A stretch of 64,000 nt of DNA from the NCBI GenBank assembly GCA_964520325.1, contig CAZFOB010000005.1:20661-84660 (forward strand). The letters are read 5' to 3'. Origin of the DNA: an uncultured Actinomycetes bacterium (GTDB taxonomy: Bacteria > Actinomycetota > JAICYB01). The translations under genes and the position numbers were made by a program. Shown piece by piece: positions 3,356-47,602 of this stretch. Each line of letters begins with the position of its first letter. The first letter of the stretch is position 1. The notes under the pieces were generated by a model. That model made no database searches. It had not been told where the DNA came from and was given only the letters and a program-made list of their open reading frames with translations.

Positions 3356-4579
3356 TCAGTTGGGAGCCACGATCGCGTGGGTGGCAAGCTCGGGCGGCCA
3401 GACAACCGCCTTCTGACGAGGCGCGACCCACTCCCAGATCACGTGCGTCGCGCGCCGGTTGTTGCCGGCATCGGATCCGGACGTCCCGAACCTCAAGCCG
3501 CCGCCGTCCGGAAGCCCGCCGCGCGGCACATCGACCTTGCGCGCAGCCGCAGCGACGGCGTGCGCGGTCGCGCTTGATGCCGCCGGGAGCACGTGCCTGA
3601 ACAGTCCGAGCGCTCCAGAGAAGCCGGTGAGCACCGGCGCGCTGAACTCGGTCTTGAAGCGCTCCTTGTAGACCGGACGCGCCCATCGCAACGCTTCGGC
3701 CGCCTCGGGGCTCAGCTGCTCGAGATCGGGGACGGTGCCGTCCGGCTTGTCGGATGCGAAGAGTCCGACGGCGTCGTCACCCAAGGCTCCCCCGAAAGAC
3801 GTCATGCAATAGCTGGATGACGTCCCGATGTTGGCTTTCAATGCAACATCCCGCTTCACGATCTGTTTGCGCAGCTTCACACCGTCCTCGAGGTAGGCAG
3901 CAACGACGAGAACATCGGTCTTCGCGTCGGCGATGCGCCGCGCCAGCTCTGCGTAGTCGGCCGTGGCTACGACGTAGGGAAGCTCCTCGGCAAGCGTGAG
4001 TCCTCTGTCGCGTATCTCTTCGAGCGCCCCGCCACCGACGGAACGTCCGTAGACATCGTCTGCGTATGCAACGGTGTAGCGCAGGTCATCGCCGAGCTCG
4101 AGCCGATCATGTACGAAGGCCACGGCTTGGCGTCCGAGGTACTGGCCCGCGTTCGGGTACCGGAAGACGGGCTGCGTCCCATCTGCAACGCCTAGCTCCA
4201 TCCCGAGCTCGCCGACGGCGCCGGTCTCCCAGAACACGAGACCGCGCCGCACCGCCGCCTTCGCCGCGGGCTGACTGATCGTGCTCCCGTAACTCCCGAG
4301 GACAACCTCGACACCGTCGTCGGCCAGCCTGTCGACGGCGTCCGGCGCTTGTTCGCGGCGCTCGGTCTTCTCGAGCTTCAGCCGGACCGGACGTCCGCGG
4401 ACGCCACCTCGCATGTTTGCGAACTCGGCAGCGAGCTCGACGCCGCGCCACTCCTCGATCCCCCCATGGCCTTGCGCACCGCCGGTGGGATACACAGCTC
4501 CGACGACGAACGCCCGCTCACCAACGGCACAGGCCGGCGCGACAAGGGCTAGGCACAGAGCGACGACGACGCGACGCAT
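3356..4579 (-). CDS. ABC-transporter substrate-binding protein, Leu/Ile/Val-binding (type 1 PBP) family; orphan, no cognate permease adjacent
   Basis: Start is MRRVVVALCLALVAPACAV (signal or lipoprotein-like). The body shows ..VVGAVYPTGGAQGHGG..VRLKLEKTE..VVLGSYGST..AAVRRGLVFWETGA.., typical of Peripla_BP_6-like proteins. The upstream 121 aa of the track ORF are rejected. The start shares 1 nt with the CPBP stop (TGATG). Confidence 0.8.
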   Translation of the reverse strand: MRRVVVALCLALVAPACAVGERAFVVGAVYPTGGAQGHGGIEEWRGVELAAEFANMRGGVRGRPVRLKLEKTERREQAPDAVDRLADDGVEVVLGSYGSTISQPAAKAAVRRGLVFWETGAVGELGMELGVADGTQPVFRYPNAGQYLGRQAVAFVHDRLELGDDLRYTVAYADDVYGRSVGGGALEEIRDRGLTLAEELPYVVATADYAELARRIADAKTDVLVVAAYLEDGVKLRKQIVKRDVALKANIGTSSSYCMTSFGGALGDDAVGLFASDKPDGTVPDLEQLSPEAAEALRWARPVYKERFKTEFSAPVLTGFSGALGLFRHVLPAASSATAHAVAAAARKVDVPRGGLPDGGGLRFGTSGSDAGNNRRATHVIWEWVAPRQKAVVWPPELATHAIVAPN

Positions 4580-5079: not shown

Positions 5080-5483
5080 CCGACCTCGAACGGGACGCTC
5101 GCGAGCACGCGCGGGTTGAAGGGTCCGTGGTCCTTCGCGACGAACTCGGCGGTGAGCAGGTGCGTGCCCCTCTTCTTCGGAACCGCCAGCTTGTCGTTGA
5201 GACCGAAGGTCTGACTCTGGATCTTGCCGTCGATGAGTACGTGGACGTGCCCCTCAGTCGGCGTGAGGTCCCGGCTCACCTGGTCCACGATCTTCCCGCC
5301 GTCGAGCTTGATGCCGACTTCAAACGTCTTGCCGGTCACGAGCTCGCCCGCGTCGGGCTCCCCGATCGCGATCGAGGCCGACGATCGTGGCCGCTCGTCG
5401 GCTACCGGTACGTCGCTCTCGGCACATGCAGACAGAGACAGGAGGAACAGGACCGGCAAGAACACTCGAACAACTCGCATCAT
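5076..5483 (-). CDS. Lipoprotein, DUF4399-like (GHxHxxxD motif)
   Basis: Lipobox LSLSAC, and EGHVHVLIDGK resembling the DUF4399 His motif as I recall it. ATG 5483 forms an ATGA overlap with the CopCD stop, and GAGGAGG lies upstream. Confidence 0.55.
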   Translation of the reverse strand: MMRVVRVFLPVLFLLSLSACAESDVPVADERPRSSASIAIGEPDAGELVTGKTFEVGIKLDGGKIVDQVSRDLTPTEGHVHVLIDGKIQSQTFGLNDKLAVPKKRGTHLLTAEFVAKDHGPFNPRVLASVPFEVG

Positions 5484-7399
5484 CTGATCACCTCCTCGAA
5501 GCATGTACTCATACGATCACCATCCTTTGTATCGCCGGCCTTGGCATCGCCGGCGAAATCGAACAGCCACTCACCGGCTCGGAGCCTTCCGCCGGCAACG
5601 AAGTGCCCGGCCGTCAAGCGCTCGACATCGAGATCGACGACTCGCTCGCCGAGCTGGCCATCGATCCGCGCGTCCTTGGACATCGGGAACTCGACACCTT
5701 CTGCGTCGAAGAACGTGAAGTGCACCTCGTTGTGTCCCTCGCGCGCGGGGTCGACGTACATCTGCACCGTGCGTCCCCCGCCGATCTCGACGGTGTGCAG
5801 AAGCAGATCCCCCGCGACGGTCGTCGTCGGCGCCGGACAACGCGTGTGGAAGACGAGCGGGATCTCGACCGAGTCGGCTCCCCGGTCGATGAGCAGCACG
5901 GCTCGCCAGCGTCCGGGCGTCGCGATCGCACTCCCGCGCGTCTGGTACACATCACCGTCGCGCTCGAGCTCGATCGTCGTGGGTTCGACCTCGCCGTCCA
6001 GCGGCGAGAGCCTGATCCGGACTCGCTTCACCGACGACCCGCGCCGCACATCGACTTCCACGGTGAACGTGTTGACACCGGCCTGGCTCGGCGAGATCTC
6101 GAGGGTGGCCTCGACCGAGCGCGCGAAGTCGGAGCCTTCCACCACGACACTTCTGCGTTCGACCGCGAGCGACTTCGACGGCACGAGACTCGCCAGCAGT
6201 CCGGCGAGCACGAGCACCGCAAGCATCACCGTGAGCTCCACACGCGCCGCCCGTCGCAGGCGCGACGGATCGGCTTCGACTGCGCGGACGCTGCGATAGC
6301 GTTGGTAGGCACCGATGGCAGCAAGCACGCCGATGCCGGCGAGCTTGCCGAGCACGGCGCGCCCGTATCCGGTCGAGAGCAGCGCACCCCACGAGCCGAC
6401 CTCCTGCATGGCGCGGGCCGTTCCCGTGGCCGCGACGACGAGGAGCGCGAAGCCCGCGACGTTCGAGTACCGCCGCACGGTCACTACTCGCGTCTGCGGA
6501 TCGACCCCCTTGATCGCAACGAGCAGCGCGCACAGTCCACCGACCCAGATCCCGGCGGCGGCGAAGTGCACGAAGTGCGTGGCGACGCGGAGCCACACGA
6601 TGCCCCCGGCCGCCGCATGGCCGGCCGTGCCGTGCAGGAACATCGTGGCGCCTGCCGCCGCGGCGGTGAGGTCCCACGCGAAGCGCTTCGATGTCACAAC
6701 GGCGGTCACGACGGCGGCCCCCGCGACAACGAGCCCGACCGTGCGGCCGGCGAGCGCCCGTCCGATCGGCGTCAAGAACAGCTCGGAGAACGCCACGCCG
6801 GCCGACGCCCTCTGTGCGAACGCCAGCACCAAGAGTCCGGCGAACGAAAGGGCGACACCCAAGAATGCGAGCCCCGTTGCGCGCGACGCCGGCGCCCTGA
6901 TCAAGAACCCGAACACCACGGCCGCACCGAGAAGCACCATCAACCCGATGTAGAGCAGCACGCGACCGGCCACTTCCCCCGGGACGACGACCGTGGCCAA
7001 CGCCACCGGGAGCTCGGCGTCCTCGATCTCCGAAGGCGACACGCCGACCCCGAATGCGTACGCACCAACGGTGAGGTGACCGTCCACGCGCGAGACGACC
7101 TTCCAGCTCACGGTGTAGACGCCCTTGTCCAGAGGCTCGACGGCGATACGCAGACCCCCGGCGACCGACGTCGCGTCCCCCTTGGTGTGTCGCGCGCCCA
7201 AGGTGTCGAGGACGTCGATGCTTGACAGCTTCGCGTCGGGCGCCTCGGTGAACGTCAGGGTAACGGCCGAGGGCGGCGAGCCGAGGCTCGCGCCCTCGGC
7301 GGGATCGGCGTCGGCCAACAGCGCGTGTGCGCCGGCGCGCGGCGCTGCAAGCAGCGCCATCGCGCCGGCACACACAACAACCACGAACAGTCGCCTCAC
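5480..7399 (-). CDS. Copper resistance CopC-CopD fusion protein (YcnJ-like) with C-terminal Ig-like/YtkA-like domains
   Basis: The signal peptide ends ..PRAGA|HALLADADPAEGASL..VTLTFTE..VSWKVVSRVDGH (CopC with a mature N-terminal His). This is followed by ~8 TM helices of CopD type and two beta-rich C-terminal domains. Confidence 0.85.
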   Translation of the reverse strand: MRRLFVVVVCAGAMALLAAPRAGAHALLADADPAEGASLGSPPSAVTLTFTEAPDAKLSSIDVLDTLGARHTKGDATSVAGGLRIAVEPLDKGVYTVSWKVVSRVDGHLTVGAYAFGVGVSPSEIEDAELPVALATVVVPGEVAGRVLLYIGLMVLLGAAVVFGFLIRAPASRATGLAFLGVALSFAGLLVLAFAQRASAGVAFSELFLTPIGRALAGRTVGLVVAGAAVVTAVVTSKRFAWDLTAAAAGATMFLHGTAGHAAAGGIVWLRVATHFVHFAAAGIWVGGLCALLVAIKGVDPQTRVVTVRRYSNVAGFALLVVAATGTARAMQEVGSWGALLSTGYGRAVLGKLAGIGVLAAIGAYQRYRSVRAVEADPSRLRRAARVELTVMLAVLVLAGLLASLVPSKSLAVERRSVVVEGSDFARSVEATLEISPSQAGVNTFTVEVDVRRGSSVKRVRIRLSPLDGEVEPTTIELERDGDVYQTRGSAIATPGRWRAVLLIDRGADSVEIPLVFHTRCPAPTTTVAGDLLLHTVEIGGGRTVQMYVDPAREGHNEVHFTFFDAEGVEFPMSKDARIDGQLGERVVDLDVERLTAGHFVAGGRLRAGEWLFDFAGDAKAGDTKDGDRMSTCFEEVIR

Positions 7400-7402
7400 G
7401 AT

Positions 7403-7996
7403 CTAGCCGCTGCGTCTGCGGGTTCCGAGCACGATCGCTGCGGCACCCAGCACGATCCCGACGATGCCGAGAGTGCGCGGCAGGGCCGCAGCAGACCTCG
7501 CGTCCGCGATCTCGCCCTCGAGGGTGACGATGCGGTCGGTGAGCTCCGTCGTCGTCGGTGCCTCCTTGGGGAATGCGATCTCGGAGTTGCCTTGAACCTC
7601 GCTGAAGTCGTCCTTCGGGGAGGTGAAGGATTCGTCCAACTTCTCGCCGTCGATGTCGCCGGTGAAGTGGAAGGTGTAACCGCCCGGAGCCGTCGGGATC
7701 AGATCGGCTCTGTACTCACCGGGCGAGTCGAACACCGTTCGCATCTCCAACGGCTCGGTCTTCGCCTCCCCGAGAGCGACTTCGACCTCGAGCGACTTCT
7801 CGGCTCCTTCGACGGGCTTGCCGTCGCGTTCGATGTTCAGCTGGACGGCGTTCGGCTCGCCGGCGAACGCCGGCTCGCTCGCCCAGCCGACCGTGAAGAC
7901 CAGAGATCCGACGTCGCGGTGACCGTGCGCGAGCGCGGGCGATGCGAACGCACCGACGAACGCACCAACGAACGTGAACAACATCAAACGTTTCAT
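7403..7996 (-). CDS. Secreted, C-terminally membrane-anchored protein with mature N-terminal His; occupies the YcnI position of ycnI-ycnJ type operons
   Basis: Signal peptide ..ASPALA|HGHRDVG, a beta-rich body, and a C-terminal TM segment LGIVGIVLGAAAIVLG followed by RRRSG. It ends 3 nt upstream of the copCD start. I could not confirm the DUF1775 signature by eye. Confidence 0.5.
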   Translation of the reverse strand: MKRLMLFTFVGAFVGAFASPALAHGHRDVGSLVFTVGWASEPAFAGEPNAVQLNIERDGKPVEGAEKSLEVEVALGEAKTEPLEMRTVFDSPGEYRADLIPTAPGGYTFHFTGDIDGEKLDESFTSPKDDFSEVQGNSEIAFPKEAPTTTELTDRIVTLEGEIADARSAAALPRTLGIVGIVLGAAAIVLGTRRRSG

Positions 7997-8648: not shown

Positions 8649-11024
8649 CTAGAGCAGCGGGACGCGGCGCAGGCCTCCACCAAGTGGTTGGGAACGCAAC
8701 AGCCGCAGACCATTGGCGACCACCATGAGCGTGGCACCCACGTCGGCGAGAACGGCCATCCACAATGTGAGCAGGCCGGCGAGCGCGAGAACCGCCGCCA
8801 CCACCTTCACTCCGAGGGAGAACGCGATGTTCTGGCGCACCACTGCCGCCGTCCAGCGTGAGAGACCGATGAGTCCCGCCACTTTCCCGATGTCCTCGCC
8901 CATGAGCGCGACATCGGCCGTCTCGATCGCCGTCGGACTCCCCGCGCTGCCCATCGCGATCCCCAGCGAAGAGCGCGCCAGCGCCGGCGCATCGTTGACA
9001 CCATCGCCCACCATGGCCGTCGCGCCGAACTCAGCTTGCAACTCTTCGAGCGCCGCGACCTTCTCTTCCGGCAACAGCTCCGGACGCACATCGTCGACGC
9101 CGGCCTCACGCATCACGCGCTGAGCGGCGGCGGCGTGATCACCGGTAAGCAGAACAGTCCGCTTCACGCCAACACGCCCGAGAGCCGCAACGCCCTCCCG
9201 CGCTCCGGTGCGCACCGCATCGTCGATGCCGATCACACCCGCGAGCTGATCCTCACTTCCGACGACCACGACCGTGCGCCCCTCGCGCTCGAGCTCGCCG
9301 ATCGCCTCGGCGGCTTCAGCGATCCGTGGATGCCCGCTGAAGGCAGCCGGCTTGCCGAGGCGCAACACAGACCCGTCGACCGTTCCCTCGACACCGGAGC
9401 CGCGCATGGCTTCGAACGCCTCGAGCCGGCCGGGCTCGACGTTGTGGCGCTCGGCTTCCTCGACGATCGCTCGCGCAAGCGGGTGCTCCGACCCGGACTC
9501 GAGCGTCGCTGCGAGCCGGAGCAGCTGCGCGTCGGTGTGTGCACCCAAGGGCAAGATCTTCGTGACGCGCGGCCGCCCCGCCGTGAGCGTCCCCGTCTTG
9601 TCGAACGCGACCGCACGAACCGACGCGGCGGCCTCGAGATACGCGCCGCCCTTGACGAGAACACCGGCCGCCGACGCGCGCGCGAGCGCGGAGACGACCG
9701 CGACCGGAGTCGCGATGACGAGCGCACACGGGCACGCGAGTATCAAGAACGCGAGCCCGCGATAGAGCCAGTCGGCGAAGGACCCGAAGCCGAACAGCGC
9801 GGGAAAAACCGCCGTCGCCAAGGCCACACCCATCACGATCGGCGTGTACACACGGGCGAAGCGGTCGACCCATCGCTCAGCCGGAGAGCGCTGCGCCTGC
9901 GCTTCCGCGACGGCGCGGCCGATGCGAGCGAGGGTGCTGTCTCCCGGCGCCCGATCGACGCGGATCTCGAGCCGGCCTTCGCCGTTGAACGTCCCGGCGA
10001 AGACCTCGTCCCCAACTGTCTTATCGACCGGGATCGCCTCACCGGTGATCGGCGCCTGGTCGACGGCACCAGAACCCGCGACGACCACTCCATCCGCCGA
10101 GATCCGCTCACCCGGACGTACCACGACGACATCACTCACCACCAGATCAGAGGCCGGAACCTCCACCTCGTCGGTACCGCGCAGCACTCTCGCGCTTTCC
10201 GGAGCGAGAGCGAGCAGCTCCGAGAGTGACCGCCGGGATCGAGCGACCGCGTACCGCTCGAGGTCTGATCCGATGGAGAACAGCACGACGACGAGCGCTG
10301 CCTCGAGCCACGCTCCGATGGCGCCGGCGCCGATCACGGCGATCGTCATCAGGATGTTGATGTCGGGGCGCCGGGTGGCGCGCAACGCCGCGACACCCGA
10401 CCGGGCGACCGTCCATCCGCCGGCGACGACGGCGATGACGTACAACGCTCGCGCGATCGCATCGGCCCCGTAGGCCGAAGCGGCGACGGCCGTGAGCATC
10501 GCAACGACGGCTGCACCGGTCTGCACCTCGCGCTTGCGGCGCGCCAAGAAGCCACGTGGTTCGGCCTCAACTCCCGTCTCATCTTTGATCGGGATGCGAT
10601 AGCCGAGAGCAGACACCTGGTTGCGGAGTCGCTCGAGAAAATCGGGAGCAGCAACGTCGTACTCGACACGCATCCGCGCCGCCGCGAAGTTCACCGAGCA
10701 CGCGGTCGCGCCGTCCATACGCAAGGCTGCGCGCTCGATCGTTTGCGCGCAGTCGTAGCAGTCCATCCCTTCGACGCGCAGGATCTCGTGGTGGTAGCGG
10801 CGGGCCAGCGTTGCCCCCACGGTGTCGGCCGCCTGCGTCACGCACGAGAGCGAACAGTGCTCGGGGTCGTAGGCAACGCGGACGGCGCTCGTACCGACGG
10901 GCTCGACGGCAACAACACCCCGGTGCCGGCTGAGCTCGGTGAAGAGGCGTCCCGCGCAACTCTCACAGTCGTCGCCGGCTGCGAGGTGGACCGGGATCTC
11001 CGCGGTCTGTGTCGGTGGAGTCAT
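8649..11024 (-). CDS. Heavy-metal P1B-type ATPase, Zn/Cd/Pb (CadA/ZntA)-like
   Basis: Two N-terminal CxxC metal-binding modules (DDCESCAG, MDCYDCAQ), a TM6 ACPCALVIATP, DKTGTLT, GDGVNDAP, a TM7 Lys (LGVKV) and a TM8 ADVGATLMVVANGLRLL (DxG). That combination is typical of P1B-2 rather than Cu-type pumps. Confidence 0.9.
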   Translation of the reverse strand: MTPPTQTAEIPVHLAAGDDCESCAGRLFTELSRHRGVVAVEPVGTSAVRVAYDPEHCSLSCVTQAADTVGATLARRYHHEILRVEGMDCYDCAQTIERAALRMDGATACSVNFAAARMRVEYDVAAPDFLERLRNQVSALGYRIPIKDETGVEAEPRGFLARRKREVQTGAAVVAMLTAVAASAYGADAIARALYVIAVVAGGWTVARSGVAALRATRRPDINILMTIAVIGAGAIGAWLEAALVVVLFSIGSDLERYAVARSRRSLSELLALAPESARVLRGTDEVEVPASDLVVSDVVVVRPGERISADGVVVAGSGAVDQAPITGEAIPVDKTVGDEVFAGTFNGEGRLEIRVDRAPGDSTLARIGRAVAEAQAQRSPAERWVDRFARVYTPIVMGVALATAVFPALFGFGSFADWLYRGLAFLILACPCALVIATPVAVVSALARASAAGVLVKGGAYLEAAASVRAVAFDKTGTLTAGRPRVTKILPLGAHTDAQLLRLAATLESGSEHPLARAIVEEAERHNVEPGRLEAFEAMRGSGVEGTVDGSVLRLGKPAAFSGHPRIAEAAEAIGELEREGRTVVVVGSEDQLAGVIGIDDAVRTGAREGVAALGRVGVKRTVLLTGDHAAAAQRVMREAGVDDVRPELLPEEKVAALEELQAEFGATAMVGDGVNDAPALARSSLGIAMGSAGSPTAIETADVALMGEDIGKVAGLIGLSRWTAAVVRQNIAFSLGVKVVAAVLALAGLLTLWMAVLADVGATLMVVANGLRLLRSQPLGGGLRRVPLL

Positions 11025-11398
11025 TCGGCCGTGTGCCGGACGTGCTCGGCCGACAGATCGAGCAGGAGTCGGACGTGCGCATCGTGCAGGCTGTAGTACA
11101 CGGTGCGCCCGGCGCGGCGGTTGCGGACGATCCCGGCTGTGCGCAGAAGCCGCAACGCGTGAGACACCGACGTCTCGGGCATGTCGATGGTCGCGGCAAG
11201 ATCGCAGACACAGAGCTCACCCGCCTCGAGGAGCGCATAGAGAAGCCGCACGCGCCCGGGGTCGCCGAGGAGCCGGAACTGGTCGGCCAATTGCTGGGCC
11301 TCGGTCTGCGGCAACAATCGTTCGCGCGCCGCCTGCACGCGCTCGGGATCGATCGCTCGCACCGGGCAGGCGTCGAGGCCGACGATGTTCTCGGTCAT
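11021..11398 (-). CDS. ArsR/SmtB-family metal-sensing repressor
   Basis: ..LLGDPGRVRLLYALLEAGELCVCDLAATIDMPETSVSHALRLLRTAGIV.. with the CVC alpha-3 site. Its stop overlaps the ATPase start by 4 nt. Confidence 0.9.
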   Translation of the reverse strand: MTENIVGLDACPVRAIDPERVQAARERLLPQTEAQQLADQFRLLGDPGRVRLLYALLEAGELCVCDLAATIDMPETSVSHALRLLRTAGIVRNRRAGRTVYYSLHDAHVRLLLDLSAEHVRHTAE

Positions 11399-11492: not shown

Positions 11493-12065
11493 ATGGCTCT
11501 CCGTCACGCGGCTCAAGCTCGAAGGCGACCTCGCTCATTCGTTCTCACGGTCGGGATCGTGCTCGCCACGGCCGGTGCGGTGAACTTTTTCGGATGCTCC
11601 CAACAACAGGACGTCGAGACCGTCGCGCCACCGAAAGGCGTCCGCACATTCGACGTCGAGGGTGGCCACTCCGATCTCCCGGTCGAGTACGACGTCACCC
11701 CGCCGGTTGGGGGGAAGCACGACCCGCTGCCACAGACGTGCGCGTTCTACGCCGAGCCCGTACGCAGTGAGCACGCCGTCCATTCCTTGGAGCATGGCGC
11801 CGTCTGGATCACGTACCGTCGAGGCCTCGCCGACGACCAGATCGACATCTTGCGCGGGCTGGCGGAGACCAGCGCGAAGGTCTTGGTCAGCGAATGGCGA
11901 GGTGACCTGCCCGCGACGGTCGTCGCCTCAGCTTGGGGCCGCCAGCTCCGCCTTCGGTCGGCCAGAGATGATCGCCTCGTGAGATTCATCGACGTATTCC
12001 AAAGCGCCACAACAGCGCCCGAACCGGCAGCCCGATGCGGAGGCGTTGGCCAGCCCCTCGCGTGA
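11493..12065 (+). CDS. DUF3105 domain-containing membrane-anchored protein
   Basis: N-terminal TM or lipoprotein-like segment (..ATAGAVNFFGCS), then ..TPPVGGKHDP..EHAVHSLEHGAVWITY.., matching my memory of DUF3105. Confidence 0.65.
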   Translation: MALRHAAQARRRPRSFVLTVGIVLATAGAVNFFGCSQQQDVETVAPPKGVRTFDVEGGHSDLPVEYDVTPPVGGKHDPLPQTCAFYAEPVRSEHAVHSLEHGAVWITYRRGLADDQIDILRGLAETSAKVLVSEWRGDLPATVVASAWGRQLRLRSARDDRLVRFIDVFQSATTAPEPAARCGGVGQPLA

Positions 12066-12085: not shown

Positions 12086-12115
12086 TTGACACTCCCGACC
12101 GGACGGCCGTAGGTT
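12086..12115 (+). promoter_or_regulatory. Candidate promoter: TTGACA-N18-TAGGTT
   Basis: TTGACA at 12086-12091 and TAGGTT (TANNNT) at 12110-12115. This would place the transcription start just upstream of the riboswitch core. Confidence 0.35.
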
Positions 12116-12119
12116 CCTG

Positions 12120-12280
12120 GCATAGAGCAAACGTGAGGGTGCCCCCAAGGCCCGGATGCCCGGGGCAGAAGCAGCGAAGCCGGTTGGAGTCCGGCGCTGA
12201 CCCGCAACTGTGAGCGATCCGGCGAACCGTCCATCCAGGGCGGCGCCGAGTTCGTGAGCCAGGACGCCTCGCCGTCACGT
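12120..12280 (+). promoter_or_regulatory. Cobalamin (B12) riboswitch
   Basis: GGTGCC (12138) ... GAAGCCGGTTGGAGTCCGGCGCTGACCCGCAACTGTGAGC (B12-box region) ... GAGCCAGGACGCC, in the order of the Rfam cobalamin consensus. Downstream, CTCCT (12290-94) can pair with the SD AGGAG (12305-09) of the first gene. Confidence 0.8.
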
Positions 12281-12319
12281 TGCTCCGGTCTCCTTCGAGG
12301 AAAGAGGAGGTGGAGCTGT

Positions 12320-12808
12320 ATGAAGCGAGTGTCGCTTCACGTCTTGGTGGTCGCCATGTCCATGGCACTGCTCGGGACCACGCTCGTCGCGCCCCAGGCG
12401 GACGCGCGTGGCCGCGGCAAGGCCGGTGTCGTCGTCGTCCACGGCGACGGACGCGTTGTGACCGAGTGTGTACGTCTCGACCGTGCCACTATCTCTGGCT
12501 TGCAGCTGCTCGAGCGAACCGGCATCCCGTTCAGCGCTGCGCGGTTCGGCTTCGGTACGGCGATCTGCCGGCTCGACGGAGAAGGACCCGATACCACCGA
12601 CTCGAGCGACTGCTTCTCGGATCCGCAAGACCGGTTCTGGGGCTACTGGACACAGGACAAGGGCGACGCGGGTCCGGTGTCCTCCGAGTTCGGCGCGGGT
12701 GATCGCAGGGTCAGGAGGCGCTCGATCGATTACTGGGTGTGGGACGCACTTCCGTCGGAGGCGCCGGCCACGCTCACGTTCGCCCAGGTCTGCGGGGCGG
12801 CGGCGTAG
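12320..12808 (+). CDS. Secreted DUF4430-like (transcobalamin beta-domain-like) protein
   Basis: ATG 12320 preceded by AGGAGG, with signal peptide MKRVSLHVLVVAMSMALLGTTLVAPQADA. It is a paralog of the 14061-14708 product. ..FWGYWTQ..GAGDRRV..IDYWVW fits the DUF4430 pattern as I recall it. Confidence 0.7.
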   Translation: MKRVSLHVLVVAMSMALLGTTLVAPQADARGRGKAGVVVVHGDGRVVTECVRLDRATISGLQLLERTGIPFSAARFGFGTAICRLDGEGPDTTDSSDCFSDPQDRFWGYWTQDKGDAGPVSSEFGAGDRRVRRRSIDYWVWDALPSEAPATLTFAQVCGAAA

Positions 12809-12813
12809 GACTC

Positions 12814-14064
12814 GTGCGTCGACCCATCGCGTTGCTGTTCGTCGTCGGTCTTGTGTCTGCGTCCGCCTCGTCTGCGGCCTCCTCTGCGGCTCTTGGCGAC
12901 GACCGAACCATGAATGCGCAACGTGGCGCCGAGTGGCTGTCGCGCCAGCAACACAGCAACGGCGCATTCGAGAACCCCGACCAGGCCGCCGAGGAGACCG
13001 CGTCCATCGTTGTCGCCGTAGTCGCCGGCGGCGGCGAGCAGCCCGTCATCGAGAAGGCGCTCGGCTATCTCGCGGCCAACGGACGCGCTGCGAGTGTGCG
13101 CGGCGCGTACACCGGGCGCATCGTCGCGGCGATCGTCGCCGGGGGCGGCGATCCGAGCGATCATGGCGGTTTCGACTTCGTCGCGAAGTTGCGCTCGCAG
13201 CAACGCCCGGATGGCGCCTACGACGACAAGTTCTTCGGACACCTCGAGGCCGTCAACGGGCTCCTCGCCGCCAAGGCTGCAGTCCCGAGCGGAGCGTTGG
13301 CGTCGATCCGAGACAGTGAGTGCAGCGGAGGAGGGTTCGGAGACGACTATGGATGCCCGAACGGTGCCAACGTCGACAGCACCGCGCTGGCCGTCGATGC
13401 ACTGATCGCGGCGAAGGAACGCGATGCGGTCGTCACGCGCGCGCGCAGCTACCTCCTCTCGGCCCAGCACGCAGACGGCGGATTCGGGTTCACCGAAGCA
13501 ACCAGTTCCGACTCGACCGGCCTCGCGCTCTCGGCGATCGCGAGCCTGAAAGAGGACGCGCAAGCCACACCCTGGCGACAGAACGATGACGACGATCCGG
13601 TGAGCGCGTTGCTGCAGCTGCAGACCAAGAGCGGTGCATTCAGGTTCGTCGCGACGGGCAAGGCGAACGTACGGTCGACGTCCAACGCCGTCCCTGGTCT
13701 TGCCGGCGTCGCGTATCCGGTTCCCCGCCGCGCCGTTGCCGCCGCAACCCCCAAGCCCGCACGAAGCCCGAAACCCTCCGCGCCAGGTGACAGCGCCGGC
13801 GCTGGTCCGATCGCGCCGCCGGGTTCGCCAGTTCCGGGCCTCGTCGCCGGCAACGGCGAGGGTGCACCGCCAACGTCGGCGGCGACCACGCCGATGCCGT
13901 CGGCCTCGGCTCTCAGCCACCCCGCACCATTCGGTGGTGCGTCCGAAGAGAGCGCTGATGAAAGCGATGGTCTGCCGCGCGCCGTGGCCGCGACGCTGCT
14001 CGGGGCCGGGATCGTCGGTGCGGGCTACGGCGGGTTCAGGTGGCGGCGCAGCATACGACGATGA
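12814..14064 (+). CDS. Exported prenyltransferase/squalene-oxidase-repeat (alpha/alpha toroid) protein with Pro-rich linker and C-terminal TM anchor
   Basis: GTG 12814 lies 5 nt after the upstream stop, followed by a signal peptide. Five QxxxG[AG]F-type repeats are present (QQHSNGAF, QQRPDGAY, ECSGGGF, AQHADGGF, QTKSGAF). The tail is ..PKPARSPKPSAP.. then AVAATLLGAGIVGAGYGGF-RWRR. Confidence 0.75.
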   Translation: MRRPIALLFVVGLVSASASSAASSAALGDDRTMNAQRGAEWLSRQQHSNGAFENPDQAAEETASIVVAVVAGGGEQPVIEKALGYLAANGRAASVRGAYTGRIVAAIVAGGGDPSDHGGFDFVAKLRSQQRPDGAYDDKFFGHLEAVNGLLAAKAAVPSGALASIRDSECSGGGFGDDYGCPNGANVDSTALAVDALIAAKERDAVVTRARSYLLSAQHADGGFGFTEATSSDSTGLALSAIASLKEDAQATPWRQNDDDDPVSALLQLQTKSGAFRFVATGKANVRSTSNAVPGLAGVAYPVPRRAVAAATPKPARSPKPSAPGDSAGAGPIAPPGSPVPGLVAGNGEGAPPTSAATTPMPSASALSHPAPFGGASEESADESDGLPRAVAATLLGAGIVGAGYGGFRWRRSIRR

Positions 14065-14708
14065 TCCGATGGCGCGGCCCCGCCGCCGCTGCGTGCATCG
14101 CGGCGATCGCGGTCTTGCAATCACCGACGCTCGATGCCGCCGAGCCCAACCGCGCCGGACTCGTCGTGCGCTCGGCAGACGGCGAGGTGGCTCGGATGTG
14201 TGTCTTCTTCGACGAGTTGCAGATCAGCGGTCTCGATCTGCTCGAGCGCTCTGCTCTGCCTCTCGTGACCGATCGCTCTTCGCTCGGCGCCGCGATCTGC
14301 AAGCTCGGCAACAAAGGCTGCGCCACCGGCGACTGTTTCTGCCGCTACCCGACGTTCTGGGGCTACTGGGTGCACGAGCCCAAGTTGGACGAGTGGACGT
14401 TCTCCGAAGTCGGTGCGGCCGACCGCATGATCCGCAACGGCGACGTGGACGGTTGGTCGTTCGGCAAGGACGGCAAGCCGCCTCCAGGCAACGAGTCGTT
14501 CAAGAAGCTCTGCGGACCCGGCGCGCGCGATGCCGCAACGACCGCTGCGGCCGGACGAAAGGCTGCCGCACCACTCGCACAGCCGGTGTCCAACACCCGA
14601 GGCAACTACCTCGGGTTTGGGGCATCCGTCGCGTTGTTCACCTCCGCTGGAGCGGGGCTATGGCTGATGCAGCGCCGGCGGCTCAGGCCGCCACGAGCAG
14701 ACCTGTGA
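14061..14708 (+). CDS. DUF4430-like paralog with C-terminal TM anchor
   Basis: ATG 14061 overlaps the upstream stop (ATGA). It aligns by eye with the 12320 product (GLVVRSADGEV..CV....ISGLDLLERS..P..GAAICKL..GC..DCF..FWGYW..GAADR..D.W). C-terminal TM segment GFGASVALFTSAGAGLWLM-QRRR. Confidence 0.7.
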   Translation: MIRWRGPAAAACIAAIAVLQSPTLDAAEPNRAGLVVRSADGEVARMCVFFDELQISGLDLLERSALPLVTDRSSLGAAICKLGNKGCATGDCFCRYPTFWGYWVHEPKLDEWTFSEVGAADRMIRNGDVDGWSFGKDGKPPPGNESFKKLCGPGARDAATTAAAGRKAAAPLAQPVSNTRGNYLGFGASVALFTSAGAGLWLMQRRRLRPPRADL

Positions 14709-15864
14709 GGTACATCACGAGCACACCGGCGACGAAGCCGACGCCGTTGAGCGGTGACGCTGCGTCCTTACTGTTGCGCCGGAGCAGCTTGAGGATCTCC
14801 CACACCACTTGCACGATCGCTCCGGCCCCCACCGACAGGAACAGCACCGCGAGCGTCGGCGAGTAGGACAGACCGCCCGACCACGTGCCGACGATCGTCG
14901 GCACGCCGGCGAGCAAGCCCAGTCCGAGCAACGCCTTGAGGCTCGGGTTCGCGCGCGCGAGCGGCGACACGATGCCCAGGCCCTCGGTGACGTTGTGCAG
15001 CATGAACCCGATGATGAGGAACGTCGTGAGGCCAACCTCGCCGATCGCGAACGCCGCTCCGATCGCGAGTCCCTCGCCGAGGTTATGCAGGCCGATGCCG
15101 ACCGCGATCAAAGCAGAGACGTAGAGCGGCGTCATCTCACCGCCGCGACGATTACGCATCCATCCGTCCACTGCATAGAGCGCAGCAAGTGCGCCGACGA
15201 CACCGACAACGATGAGTCCAACGCCTTGGAACGCACCCGGAACGCTTCCCGAGATCTCCAACGCCTCGTCGAGCGCGTCGACGGCGAGGAATACGAGCAG
15301 ACCGGCAGTGAGCGCAAGGAAGAAGTCGATCCAGGCTTGCGGGAGCCGGCGGAGGAACGGGAGCCAGAACAGTCCGAGCAGAACGGGGATCACACCGACG
15401 AAGATGCCGATGAGGGTGAACGTCCACAGTGTGCGGGCGCTGCCCTCCGGCGTCGCGACCGCAACCGCGATGTCATGGGTGAACACCACACCGGACGCAG
15501 TGATCACCTTGACCGCGTGGGCTTCACCGTCGACCCACGGGTACGGGATCGTGATCGTTGCGCGGGCGAGACGGCCGATCTCGGACCCCGGCGAGATCTC
15601 GTATGTCCAGTACGCATCGTCCACGAGAACCTGCGCGACGGTCAGCGGATCGGGACCCCCGTTGGTCACCGAGAGAACGATCTCGTACGGGTCATCGTCC
15701 AGAACAGCCCGCGTGACGGTGAGCTCCTCCACCGCCGGGACGTCCGGACGCAGACTCTGCAACGGATCCATGCGGACGAACGCGAAGATGACGAGCCCGA
15801 GGACGATCAACGGCATCAGCGCGAACGCAACCGTCGATCCACCGGAGCGGTCTTGCGTCTTCAT
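14683..15864 (-). CDS. ZIP-family divalent metal transporter with an extra ~130-aa extracytoplasmic N-terminal domain
   Basis: GLHNLGEGLAIG and MLHNVTEGLGI (HNxxEG ZIP motifs). There is an N-terminal TM segment plus a beta-rich domain before the ZIP core. ATG 15864 is chosen, 7 nt after the MCO stop. Confidence 0.8.
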   Translation of the reverse strand: MKTQDRSGGSTVAFALMPLIVLGLVIFAFVRMDPLQSLRPDVPAVEELTVTRAVLDDDPYEIVLSVTNGGPDPLTVAQVLVDDAYWTYEISPGSEIGRLARATITIPYPWVDGEAHAVKVITASGVVFTHDIAVAVATPEGSARTLWTFTLIGIFVGVIPVLLGLFWLPFLRRLPQAWIDFFLALTAGLLVFLAVDALDEALEISGSVPGAFQGVGLIVVGVVGALAALYAVDGWMRNRRGGEMTPLYVSALIAVGIGLHNLGEGLAIGAAFAIGEVGLTTFLIIGFMLHNVTEGLGIVSPLARANPSLKALLGLGLLAGVPTIVGTWSGGLSYSPTLAVLFLSVGAGAIVQVVWEILKLLRRNSKDAASPLNGVGFVAGVLVMYLTGLLVAA

Positions 15865-15871
15865 CCCGTGC

Positions 15872-16978
15872 CTATCCTTTGACAACATCGAAGAAGCCCA
15901 TCCAGCCGAGCTCGACGAACTCGGTCTGGTGCGCGTGGAACATGTACGGCCCTGGCTCGAAGCCTTTGTATGTGAACTCGAGGATCCCGCGCTGGGCTTG
16001 GGCTTGCACGATCATGTCGGTGAACACCGTCGGCTCAAGTGACGTGCCGGTGTCGTAGTAGTTGAAGAAGTTTGCGTGCAGATGAAGCGAGTTCATCGGA
16101 TCGAACTCGGTGATGTTGATCAGGTACAGACGCACGCTCTCGTCGCCGTTGCTGATCCTGATCGGTGACTCGTTGTAAGCGAACGCGACGGTGTTCACCG
16201 CGTACACCTCGTTCTCTCCGTCGAAGTCGGTGTCGAAGGCATTCATCACCATGACCATCTCGCGGATGCCATCATCCCGCGCGCCCTTGAGGGTGCGTTT
16301 GGTCGCAGCCCCCGACTTGTCCGAATGCTTCTTCGGGTCGGGGTCGATGATGAAGCCGCCGTACAGACCCTTGTGGATGTGTCGCTTCAACGGCAGCGTG
16401 TGGCAGTGGTACAGGTGACACCCGAACGGACCGGCGACGAAGTCGTAGACCGTGCTGTCGCCGGGCTGCACTGAGCCGGCACCGACACCGGGTACACCGT
16501 CCATGCGGGCTGAGTGGAAACCGTGGAAGTGTATCGAGTGCGGGTGTGCTCCCCCGTTGGTGAACTTCACGCGGACGCGATCACCCTCCATGCAGCGGAT
16601 GGTCGGACCGGGGACGCGTCCGTTGTACGTCCACGCCGGGAAGAACAGACCGGGGGCGATCTCGATCTCCTTGTCCTGCGCGAAGATCTCGTACTCGCGC
16701 ACGGTCTGGCCGTTGCGCCCCTTGGACGCCTCGCCCATGTCGAAGTCGTAGAGGATCTCGCTGGGGTTGAAGCCGTTGCGTGCGTGATCGACGGAACCGA
16801 CCACGCCCGACTCGCCGTGCTGCCCGCTGTGGGCTTGCGCGAGTGTGTGCTTCACGCGCTCCTTGTGGTGGGTGTTCGGCTCGGCGCTCACGACCTTGCT
16901 CAGCACACCGCCTGAGACCACGGCCGCTGCGCCGACACCGCCGGCTCGCAGAAGATCCCGTCTCGACACGTTCTTCAC
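15872..16978 (-). CDS. Tat-exported two-domain multicopper oxidase (T1 Cys in the N-terminal domain)
   Basis: Twin-arginine signal SRRDLLRAG. Copper motifs are HSIHFHG, YHCHTLPLKRH (HCH), SLHLHAN and MFHAHQ. The GTG start overlaps the MntR-like stop (GTGA). Confidence 0.85.
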   Translation of the reverse strand: MKNVSRRDLLRAGGVGAAAVVSGGVLSKVVSAEPNTHHKERVKHTLAQAHSGQHGESGVVGSVDHARNGFNPSEILYDFDMGEASKGRNGQTVREYEIFAQDKEIEIAPGLFFPAWTYNGRVPGPTIRCMEGDRVRVKFTNGGAHPHSIHFHGFHSARMDGVPGVGAGSVQPGDSTVYDFVAGPFGCHLYHCHTLPLKRHIHKGLYGGFIIDPDPKKHSDKSGAATKRTLKGARDDGIREMVMVMNAFDTDFDGENEVYAVNTVAFAYNESPIRISNGDESVRLYLINITEFDPMNSLHLHANFFNYYDTGTSLEPTVFTDMIVQAQAQRGILEFTYKGFEPGPYMFHAHQTEFVELGWMGFFDVVKG

Positions 16979-17637
16979 GCGGCGTCCACCTCGATCGCAT
17001 CAGCGGCATCGGAGCCGACGACGTGCTCGGCGCTCCCGACACACACGCGAACGCCGCCGCGATACGGGATGCGCTCTTCCACGAGCACGCGCGCGCCGGG
17101 ACGAAGTCCCAGATCGTCGAGGTGTCGCAGCAGTTCGGCGTCGCGGTCCTCAACGCGCCGGACGACGTACTCGCCGGGCTCGACGACCGCGAGCGTCGGG
17201 AGCTCGTCGTTGTCGAGCTCGAGCCGCACGGTCGGGATCGGATGACCGTGCGGGTCCTCGGTCGGATAGCCGAGGAGCTCGTCCAGGCGCGCCTCGAGGT
17301 CTTCAGAGATCACGTGCTCGAGCGCGTCGGCCTCGGCGTGCACGAGCTCCCACGGCATGCCGACAACTTTGGCCAGATAAAGCTCGAGCAAACGGTGGTG
17401 GCGGATCATCTCGACCGCTTCGCGCGCACCACGGCGCGTGAGCCGCACGCCCTGGTAGCGCTTGTGCGTGACCAACCGCTGCTCGTCGAGGCGTTTGAGC
17501 ATCCCGGAGACCGACGCCGGCGAGACCTCGAGGCGCTCGGCCACCGCCGATGTCGGCACGACGGAGCGGTCGCCACCCAATTGATAGATGGCTTTCAGGT
17601 AGTCCTGGACGGCGCTCGTAGGCAGAGTTTTAGGCAT
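16975..17637 (-). CDS. mntR: DtxR/IdeR/MntR-family metal-dependent regulator with SH3-like (FeoA) C-terminal domain; Mn-type ligand pattern
   Basis: ..AVQDYLKAIYQL..VSGMLKRLDEQRLV..HAEADALEHVIS... The positions equivalent to DtxR Met10 and Cys102 read Asp and Asp, as in Mn-selective members (from memory of DtxR numbering). Confidence 0.8.
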   Translation of the reverse strand: MPKTLPTSAVQDYLKAIYQLGGDRSVVPTSAVAERLEVSPASVSGMLKRLDEQRLVTHKRYQGVRLTRRGAREAVEMIRHHRLLELYLAKVVGMPWELVHAEADALEHVISEDLEARLDELLGYPTEDPHGHPIPTVRLELDNDELPTLAVVEPGEYVVRRVEDRDAELLRHLDDLGLRPGARVLVEERIPYRGGVRVCVGSAEHVVGSDAADAIEVDAA

Positions 17638-47485: not shown

Positions 47486-47602
47486 CTAACTGCCGGCGTC
47501 GGCCTTGTCCTTCGCTTCCGTCCACTCGCGGATCATGACGTCGACCTTCTCCTTGTAGTCCTCGAAGGCCTGCTCGATCTCTTCTCGACTGAAGCGGCTC
47601 AC
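47486..47602 (-). CDS. Possible 38-aa charged helical small protein
   Basis: My translation is VSRFSREEIEQAFEDYKEKVDVMIREWTEAKDKADAGS*. The GTG overlaps the LivHMG stop (GTGA). By my count 33 of 38 third positions are G/C. No homolog is known to me. Confidence 0.4.
   Translation of the reverse strand: MSRFSREEIEQAFEDYKEKVDVMIREWTEAKDKADAGS

Follow-up and report, generated by a model that had tools for sequence, protein, structure and literature searches.

A cobalamin-riboswitch operon for predicted exported toroid and beta-grasp proteins, resembling a split transcobalamin, in an uncultured actinomycete

We analysed a 64,000-nucleotide stretch of DNA from an uncultured Actinomycetes bacterium (contig CAZFOB010000005.1, positions 20,661 to 84,660; the whole stretch is called the window below), which carries an operon of three genes behind a cobalamin riboswitch (Table 1). 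We call these genes g1, g2 and g3. An original prediction, made from the sequence alone, had read the trio as a B12-repressed device for capturing corrinoids at the cell surface, in which the alpha and beta parts of a transcobalamin are distributed over separate polypeptides. The genes are coupled in the way that it described: the stop codon of g1 (TAG, 12806–12808) is followed by the GTG start of g2 at 12814, and g2 and g3 overlap in an ATGA (14061–14064). In the public annotation, g2 (P0051, 384 aa) begins at an ATG at 12910 and lacks the signal peptide (12814–12909). The GTG start, which lies 5 nt past the g1 stop, is backed by homologs with the same VRR...hydrophobic N terminus. A hydrophobic, signal-peptide-like segment opens all three proteins, and g2 and g3 both end in a hydrophobic helix followed by an arginine-rich tail. 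The signal peptides, conserved cysteines and stalks of the trio fit extracytoplasmic, disulfide-bonded proteins, and all three are predicted to leave the cytoplasm.

Table 1. Coordinates of the operon, of fusion examples in related loci and of neighbouring genes. Positions are those of the window unless a related locus (L number) is given.
Feature	Position	Strand	Basis
Candidate promoter, TTGACA – 18 nt – TAGGTT, directly 5′ of the aptamer	12087–12116	+	Read from the sequence
Cobalamin riboswitch aptamer, RF00174	12120–12290	+	cmscan
Putative expression platform: hairpin enclosing the g1 Shine–Dalgarno sequence	12282–12316	+	Minimum-free-energy fold
g1, predicted secreted beta protein, 162 aa	12320–12808	+	Open reading frame (ORF); signal peptide, 4 Cys
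g2, predicted exported alpha/alpha-toroid protein, 416 aa	12814–14064	+	ORF; GTG start
g3, predicted membrane-anchored beta protein, 215 aa	14061–14708	+	ORF; signal peptide and transmembrane helix
Fusion example, beta–toroid–toroid–beta	L059 5092–7875		Stop-to-stop ORF
Fusion example, beta–toroid	L004 6544–7944		Stop-to-stop ORF
Fusion example, toroid–beta	L005 4546–6129		Stop-to-stop ORF
Convergent ZIP-like membrane protein, 401 aa, then twin-arginine translocation (TAT) multicopper oxidase and DtxR/IdeR-type repressor with FeoA	14683–17637	–	
Copper-homeostasis cluster: CopC/CopD fusion	5480–7399	–	
Copper-homeostasis cluster: HMA P-type ATPase	8649–11024	–	
Copper-homeostasis cluster: HTH_5/ArsR-type regulator	11021–11398	–	

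The leader contains the core strings of a cobalamin riboswitch, and cmscan confirmed the predicted element with a match to RF00174 of 49.0 bits against a gathering score of 31.5 (E = 3.3e-9), in which model positions 1–189 of 189 were aligned. RF00174 was the sole Rfam family matched by cmscan in the 64-kb window. The aptamer ends 30 nt before the ATG of g1 at 12320, and the minimum-free-energy fold at this junction contains the hairpin that had been proposed to cover the g1 Shine–Dalgarno sequence. Its strands, GCUCCG-UCUCCU and AGGAGG-UGGAGC, enclose the sequence GAGGAGG (12304–12310), 9 nt 5′ of the ATG, and it was present in the folds of the short and the full leader alike. All 12 of its 12 pairs are retained, with near-invariant sequence, in the window, in the related loci L002, L006 and L007 and in the more distant L012, and this near-invariance argues for function. 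A terminator scan found no intrinsic terminator downstream of the aptamer, which makes control of translation initiation the likely mode; the riboswitch probably acts as an OFF switch that masks the Shine–Dalgarno sequence. The site listed in Table 1 as a candidate promoter is a tentative assignment. A consensus promoter scan did not report it because its −10 hexamer matches at only 3 of 6 positions, and its sequence is not conserved in L002, L006 and L007, each of which has a TAnnnT-like hexamer at that place.

The paralogy of g1 and g3 that had been noticed by eye is borne out by BLASTP (37% identity, E = 2e-26) and by a profile–profile comparison of the g1 group (the UP alignment) with the g3 group (the DN alignment), which gave a probability of 100% and E = 4.5e-45. 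A home-made profile of the family (BETA) matched g1 at 12410–12796 with 136 bits. The hydrophobic segments are located as the original prediction had them: g1, which has orthologs in L002, L006 and L007, has a hydrophobic N terminus only, with neither a membrane anchor nor a lipobox, and g3 consists of a signal peptide, a beta-grasp domain (aa 28–152), a short stalk and a transmembrane helix (aa 184–207). Six cysteines of g3 (47, 80, 87, 92, 94 and 151) are conserved across the family; g1 has four cysteines.

The AlphaFold model of g3 has a mean predicted local distance difference test (pLDDT) score of 86, with the core above 95. When this model was searched with Foldseek, the best 11 PDB matches were the beta domains of transcobalamin, intrinsic factor and haptocorrin, together with the bacterial DUF4430 structure 3u7z. 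With normalisation to the target domain, TM-scores were 0.68–0.69 for the isolated transcobalamin beta domain and 0.82–0.83 for 3u7z, and the matches that followed, to superantigen-like and ubiquitin-like beta-grasps, were far weaker. Among the matches is 5np4, the isolated transcobalamin beta domain with cyanocobalamin bound. In the model, a helix (57–63) is followed by two strands (68–73 and 76–82) that form an inserted beta-hairpin. Burroughs et al. (2007, PMC1796856) delimit the transcobalamin-like SLBB clade by a beta-hairpin inserted after the helix, and g3 as modelled has the structural features of that beta-grasp clade.

Named sequence families place the beta proteins elsewhere. The recently defined Pfam family PF28005 (SCO2322) is precomputed for g3 (P0001), marked as faint, and also for most g3 homologs, and g3 scored 28.6 bits against NCBIfam NF040672 (SCO2322_fam; cut-off 85), which g1 did not match. 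PF14478 (DUF4430) was absent from the 25 most frequently matched families over 51 members (g1, g3 and 49 homologs). Searched against PDB sequences, the g3 family profile matched nothing meaningful and g1 alone matched nothing. By these comparisons the beta proteins constitute a divergent SCO2322 branch, which DUF4430 models miss. The branch is large: the beta profile matched 4,861 clusters (at 50% identity) at E ≤ 1e-3, and 1,289 of them at E ≤ 1e-30. SCO2322-type beta genes also occur alone, in L051, L046, L058 and L062 (two of them in Polyangium, Myxococcota), where toroid, transporter and riboswitch were undetected nearby; the domain is thus not always part of a B12 cassette.

The g2 protein consists of a signal peptide, a toroid (about aa 33–300), a Pro/Ala-rich stalk and a C-terminal transmembrane anchor. 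The proline-rich linker and anchor that had been described are both present: the stalk (aa 301–385) contains 18 proline and 18 alanine residues among its 85 (42%), and the C-terminal hydrophobic segment is followed by RWRRSIRR. Three of the five claimed QxxxG[AG]F repeats are exact and two are degenerate (QRPDGAY and ECSGGGF), so that the number five is approximate. Pfam returned sub-threshold matches of g2 to Prenyltrans, SQHop_cyclase_C and TED. Against NCBIfam NF053823 (SCO2321_fam), g2 scored 71.5 bits, the equivalog cut-off being 300. Since the NCBIfam scores of g2 and g3 are both far under the cut-offs, the Streptomyces SCO2321 and SCO2322 proteins represent related sister groups, not families to which the window proteins themselves belong. 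The homologous toroid of L001 passes the Pfam threshold for PF01122 (Cobalamin_bind; 29.0 bits against 25).

Structural evidence on the toroid comes from a natural fusion homolog, P0075 (527 aa, 41% identical to g2), in which a toroid, a linker, an SCO2322-type beta domain and a transmembrane segment follow one another. Its model, built from a combined alignment, has a pLDDT of 87.5. Transcobalamin and haptocorrin, both at full length, accounted for the best 12 PDB matches of P0075 (lowest E-value 4e-10; some 480 columns aligned, with a root-mean-square deviation of about 9 Å, so that the matches speak for the presence and order of the domains and do not establish the relative orientation of toroid and beta domain). 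Intrinsic factor stood at ranks 17 and 19, and single-domain cyclases and prenyltransferases came after or between these.

We examined relatives of the operon in six homolog-bearing contigs and in 80 loci from a scan of species-representative genomes, using home-made profiles. The genome scan found 292 relatives, mostly from Chloroflexota, with a few Actinomycetes metagenome-assembled genomes (MAGs) and Polyangium. The usual cassette reads (beta–)toroid–beta, followed by the S component, the T component and a double ATPase of an energy-coupling factor (ECF) transporter. Counted over the 36 loci with at least 4.5 kb of sequence on each side, ECF S or T genes adjoin the toroid and beta genes in 28 and are absent in 8. 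The profile of the S components had a single significant PDB match, 6fnp_A (E = 1.5e-7), and 6FNP is the vitamin B12 transporter ECF-CbrT. A gene for a PduO adenosyltransferase follows the cassette in three loci (L004, L039 and L083).

A riboswitch is linked to the cassette as well. RF00174 reached the Rfam gathering score upstream of the cassette in eight related loci (L001, L002, L004–L007, L012 and L087) as well as in the window. We also built an nhmmer profile from the confirmed aptamers and surveyed the toroid-bearing loci with enough upstream sequence (n = 61). A riboswitch-like match lay on the same strand less than 1.2 kb upstream in 58 of them, and two of the three exceptions carry a match inside the cassette. 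The co-occurrence with a cobalamin riboswitch that the original prediction had proposed to test was thus found for the cassette. RF00174 at the gathering score was absent from the transporter-less Chloroflexi loci L015, L044 and L071 and from the beta-only loci L051, L058 and L062. Some loci carry two riboswitch-like sequences (by nhmmer only), ahead of successive sub-cassettes or in tandem: L016 at 3447–3588 and 5260–5363, L085 at 2758–2895 and 5206–5318, and L056 within 1037–1434.

The chains that are separate in the window are joined in many relatives. Among stop-to-stop ORFs we found 17 beta–toroid fusions, 4 toroid–beta fusions and 1 beta–toroid–toroid–beta fusion (examples in Table 1), a classical line of evidence for physical cooperation of the toroid with both beta chains. 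The upstream beta position of the actinobacterial locus L005 is occupied by a canonical DUF4430 protein, which scores 25.4 bits (cut-off 23.8), and its counterpart in L008 scored only 16.3 bits; in the window's clade the same slot is held by the SCO2322-type paralog.

The original prediction had described the operon as lacking a permease and an ATPase, and we found neither in the three genes. Searches with the ECF proteins of the relatives (tblastn and hidden Markov models) detected no ECF S or T component in the operon or the 64-kb window, and a BtuCD-type permease was likewise absent from the 64 kb. By Pfam, the ATP-binding cassette (ABC) systems of the window are of the MacB/FtsX, ABC-F and Liv types, with one unclassified ABC ATPase. 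The window ATPases that matched ECF A queries were only generic members of these types. Loci L002, L006 and L007 share the beta/toroid/beta trio with the window and likewise have no ECF genes. L012, from an uncultured Actinomycetes MAG, has the riboswitch and a toroid and beta gene without the upstream beta; its toroid protein (6721–7944) ends in LPDTG, a hydrophobic stretch and RNKRAR, a sortase signal, whereas g2 of the window has a plain transmembrane anchor. ECF genes are also absent from the three Chloroflexi loci L015, L044 and L071. The transporter-less form is therefore a recurrent minority variant (8 of 36 loci) and not a peculiarity of the window. For the window's trio, the importer is presumably encoded elsewhere in the genome, or else the trio works without one.

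Together, these observations favour a riboswitch-controlled corrinoid-capture complex at the cell surface, built like a split transcobalamin, and we put the probability of this reading at about 0.7. The original interpretation as a B12-capture system is supported by the riboswitch, by the folds of g3 and P0075, by the co-occurrence of riboswitch and cassette across lineages and by the CbrT-like ECF and PduO neighbours of the relatives. In such a system, low intracellular adenosylcobalamin would leave the riboswitch unliganded and the ribosome-binding site of g1 accessible, so that g1 would be translated and g2 and g3 would be expressed after it by translational coupling. g2 would hold its toroid on the roughly 85-residue Pro/Ala stalk over its C-terminal anchor, g3 would use a shorter stalk and an anchor to present an SLBB (beta-grasp) domain of the transcobalamin type, and g1 would be the same beta domain released without an anchor. 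A beta domain would take up the corrinoid first, and the toroid would then close on it to form a sandwich of the transcobalamin kind; the intrinsic-factor fragments IF30 and IF20 reportedly come together again on cobalamin in a similar way. More speculatively, free g1 may collect ligand in or beyond the cell wall and bring it to the anchored toroid. The ligand would then be handed to an importer, which in most relatives would be the CbrT-like ECF transporter of the same operon and in the window's actinobacterial clade would be a distant transporter.

A bolder form of this scheme is conceivable, though unlikely. The cassette of the window's clade would be independent of a dedicated ECF transporter, with secreted g1 acting as a protein 'corrinophore' that picks up B12 at a distance from the cell and docks on the anchored toroid by ligand-induced assembly, or with the trio as a whole acting as a competitive hoarder of B12. 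In this unlikely reading the system would be a bacterial counterpart of the intrinsic-factor/transcobalamin relay, and the two beta chains per toroid, conserved from Chloroflexota to Actinomycetota, would serve a hand-over between a mobile and a fixed beta domain.

Several results weigh against corrinoid capture. Neither g1 nor g3 matched PF14478 at E ≤ 1 in hmmscan, BLASTP gave no match between g3 and a haptocorrin beta fragment, and hhalign against a small DUF4430 alignment was weak (E = 1.2e-3 and probability 19% for the g3 group; 5.5e-5 and 66% for the g1 group). A Pfam scan found no PF01122 match for g2 at E ≤ 1, and the g2-family profile, searched against PDB sequences, was nearest to terpene cyclases, with squalene–hopene cyclases at E = 3e-30 and transcobalamin not found. 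The similarity of the beta proteins to DUF4430 is thus structural, and for the window's own proteins neither DUF4430 nor PF01122 holds as a Pfam assignment. As the sequence-level links to DUF4430 and transcobalamin are absent or weak, the structural search was the decisive test, and there the loose superposition of P0075 counts on the same side. The Shine–Dalgarno hairpin showed no covariation or compensatory changes in the alignment of related leaders. With no transporter in the operon or the 64 kb, the uptake step is a matter of pure inference. A literature search found no report of corrinoid binding for any bacterial or SCO2322-type protein of the family, and the sole related system that has been studied experimentally, in L. 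sakei, is reported to be a heme importer.

The rival that fares best, although we consider it unlikely, is that the trio sequesters or stores B12 outside the cell on its own, or secretes a 'corrinophore', and so hoards or withholds corrinoids without feeding a dedicated importer. This would account for an operon and a 64-kb window without a transporter gene, and for a transporter-less form that is intact, with a conserved riboswitch, in at least five related contigs; further points in its favour are the missing anchor of g1 and the binding of cyanocobalamin by an isolated transcobalamin beta domain (5np4). However, the same genes are operonic with an ECF importer in 28 of the 36 fully flanked relatives, which points to feeding uptake as the ancestral context. 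Repression by intracellular B12 also fits acquisition, and the absence of a transporter applies to the 64 kb, not to the rest of the genome.

Capture of another tetrapyrrole, such as heme, in place of corrinoids is an improbable alternative. It draws on L. sakei, in which an lsa1836–1840 mutant showed less heme uptake and heme was docked between the modelled alpha and beta chains (bioRxiv 10.1101/864751), and on the metal-related surroundings of the operon (copper ATPase, CopCD, ZIP-like protein, multicopper oxidase and DtxR). These metal genes lie on the opposite strand and not behind the riboswitch. Also against it, 58 of 61 loci point to near-universal control of the family by a cobalamin riboswitch, the B12-specific CbrT is the nearest relation of the linked S component, and some cassettes include a PduO corrinoid adenosyltransferase.

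We regard it as highly improbable that the operon was once an ECF-linked cassette, has lost its transporter and is now decaying without a function. ECF genes are indeed missing here and present in most relatives, including the actinomycete MAG locus L008, and g1 orthologs diverge faster (35–57% identity) than g3 orthologs (53–60%). The three ORFs are nevertheless intact and coupled, with their signal peptides, cysteine patterns and anchors, and the riboswitch and Shine–Dalgarno hairpin are kept in the window, L002, L006, L007 and L012 at only 40–60% protein identity. Hardly credible, finally, is that g2 works on envelope lipids outside the cytoplasm, as an enzyme of the terpene-cyclase or prenyltransferase kind, with g1 and g3 as accessories unrelated to B12: the g2-family profile matches squalene–hopene cyclases, as given above, and drimenyl diphosphate synthases (1e-26), and the family consensus has a DxDTT-like motif, but g2 itself reads NVDS, the middle Asp is replaced by Asn in 7 of 36 members and by Ala in 1 of 36, the variable motif recurs as what resembles a generic repeat cap, which makes cyclase activity of g2 unlikely, g2 has just one exported domain (about 270 aa), carried on a stalk, and the transcobalamin-type beta fusions, the riboswitch and the CbrT-like ECF linkage would be left unexplained. 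On motif, on architecture as a single exported, stalked toroid and on gene context, we therefore rejected g2 as a class II terpene cyclase or prenyltransferase.

The ZIP-like gene is convergent with the operon and overlaps the 3′ end of g3 by 26 nt. Downstream of the trio, the window, L002, L006 and L007 share an order of ZIP-like protein, TAT multicopper oxidase, DtxR-type repressor, YchF and EamA. Synteny of the first three of these genes holds in L002 and L007 and extends to L012; in L006 this block is degraded. Because this synteny is confined to one lineage, it gives no evidence of functional linkage to the B12 operon. We rejected the ZIP-like protein as a partner, since it is convergent and belongs to the multicopper oxidase/DtxR unit. 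On the other side, a DUF3105 ORF (PF11303, 122 bits) runs from 11493 to 12065 on the plus strand and ends 55 nt before the riboswitch; the public call there, a 79-aa ORF on the opposite strand (11535–11774), is probably a mis-call. Farther away, at 47599–52703 on the minus strand, the longest ORFs combine a Liv-type permease with an ABC ATPase (943 aa) and a major facilitator superfamily domain with an ABC ATPase (758 aa); they could be genuine fusions, or could arise from the choice of the longest ORF.

The idea behind the corrinoid-capture reading is not new in kind, as it was predicted in 2007 by Burroughs, Balaji, Iyer and Aravind, and split chains have been described in L. sakei. Burroughs and colleagues (PMC1796856) recognised bacterial transcobalamin-like SLBB domains fused to, or operonic with, toroids and predicted them to be B12 scavengers, often with a second paralogous SLBB and with CbiO/CbiQ-type genes alongside; they proposed that animals acquired transcobalamin from such bacteria. 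The systems resemble ours and those of the relatives in their secreted or anchored SLBB domain, fused or operonic toroid, second SLBB and ECF-type ATPase and T genes. They differ in that their members are mainly low-GC Gram-positive and archaeal proteins of the DUF4430 type, whereas the window's beta proteins belong to the SCO2322 branch that PF14478 misses. The main text of PMC1796856 contains no word beginning with 'Streptomyces' or 'Chloroflex', uses 'actinobacteria' only with the ComEA family and makes no link to riboswitches, and the window operon, unlike its systems, has no transporter genes. With mammalian transcobalamin, intrinsic factor and haptocorrin, the family shares the alpha/alpha toroid and the beta-grasp domain with its post-helix hairpin, and fused homologs share the toroid-then-beta order of transcobalamin. 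The window trio departs from transcobalamin in being three separate polypeptides with two beta chains per toroid, in its membrane anchors, Pro/Ala stalks, Cys-rich beta domain and riboswitch control, and in having no detectable sequence similarity to it.

In L. sakei, lsa1836–1840 encode ECF S, AA′ and T components together with the exported beta protein Lsa1839 and alpha protein Lsa1840, and a role in heme uptake is reported (bioRxiv 10.1101/864751). As in the window, separate exported alpha-like and beta-like transcobalamin chains are encoded side by side; the L. sakei operon differs in having a complete ECF transporter and one beta chain, and in being reported as a heme system. ECF-CbrT of Lactobacillus delbrueckii (6FNP; PMC5997447) is the closest solved structure to the S components of the relatives and has a PduO neighbour as some relatives do, in a cluster nrdJ-cbrS-cbrT-pduO; the passages of PMC5997447 that we examined mention no extracytoplasmic capture protein, and the window, in turn, encodes no S, T or A component. 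Streptomyces SCO2321 and SCO2322 (NF053823, NF040672; PF28005) are the best named-family matches of g2 and g3, and these families have no functional annotation. Our literature search found nothing on the function of SCO2321 or SCO2322 and nothing on DUF4430 with B12 in bacteria.

Little is known of how monoderm bacteria capture scarce B12, and the locus described here belongs to a large, riboswitch-tied family of surface toroid and beta proteins. The usual description of ECF transporters has them operate with no binding protein outside the cytoplasm. In Bacteroides, the surface lipoproteins BtuG and BtuH capture B12 with high affinity ahead of a transporter; they have a beta-propeller fold and belong to an outer-membrane, TonB-dependent system. 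They are a functional analogue of the proposed complex, and differ from it in their unrelated fold, their outer-membrane TonB-dependent context and their lipoprotein anchoring; PMC12713380 also mentions BtuG. Four points go beyond earlier work: the divergent SCO2322 beta branch that DUF4430 models do not see, the near-universal coupling to a riboswitch, the complete range of split and fused arrangements, and an ECF-less variant that recurs in an actinobacterial lineage. That variant raises the question of which importer receives the ligand, a group II ECF, BtuFCD or BacA-type transporter. If corrinoid binding holds true, the family would be a counterpart of BtuG and BtuH in Gram-positive bacteria, Chloroflexi and actinobacteria, would offer a tractable model of ligand-induced assembly of alpha and beta chains, and would bear on the proposed bacterial origin of animal transcobalamin.

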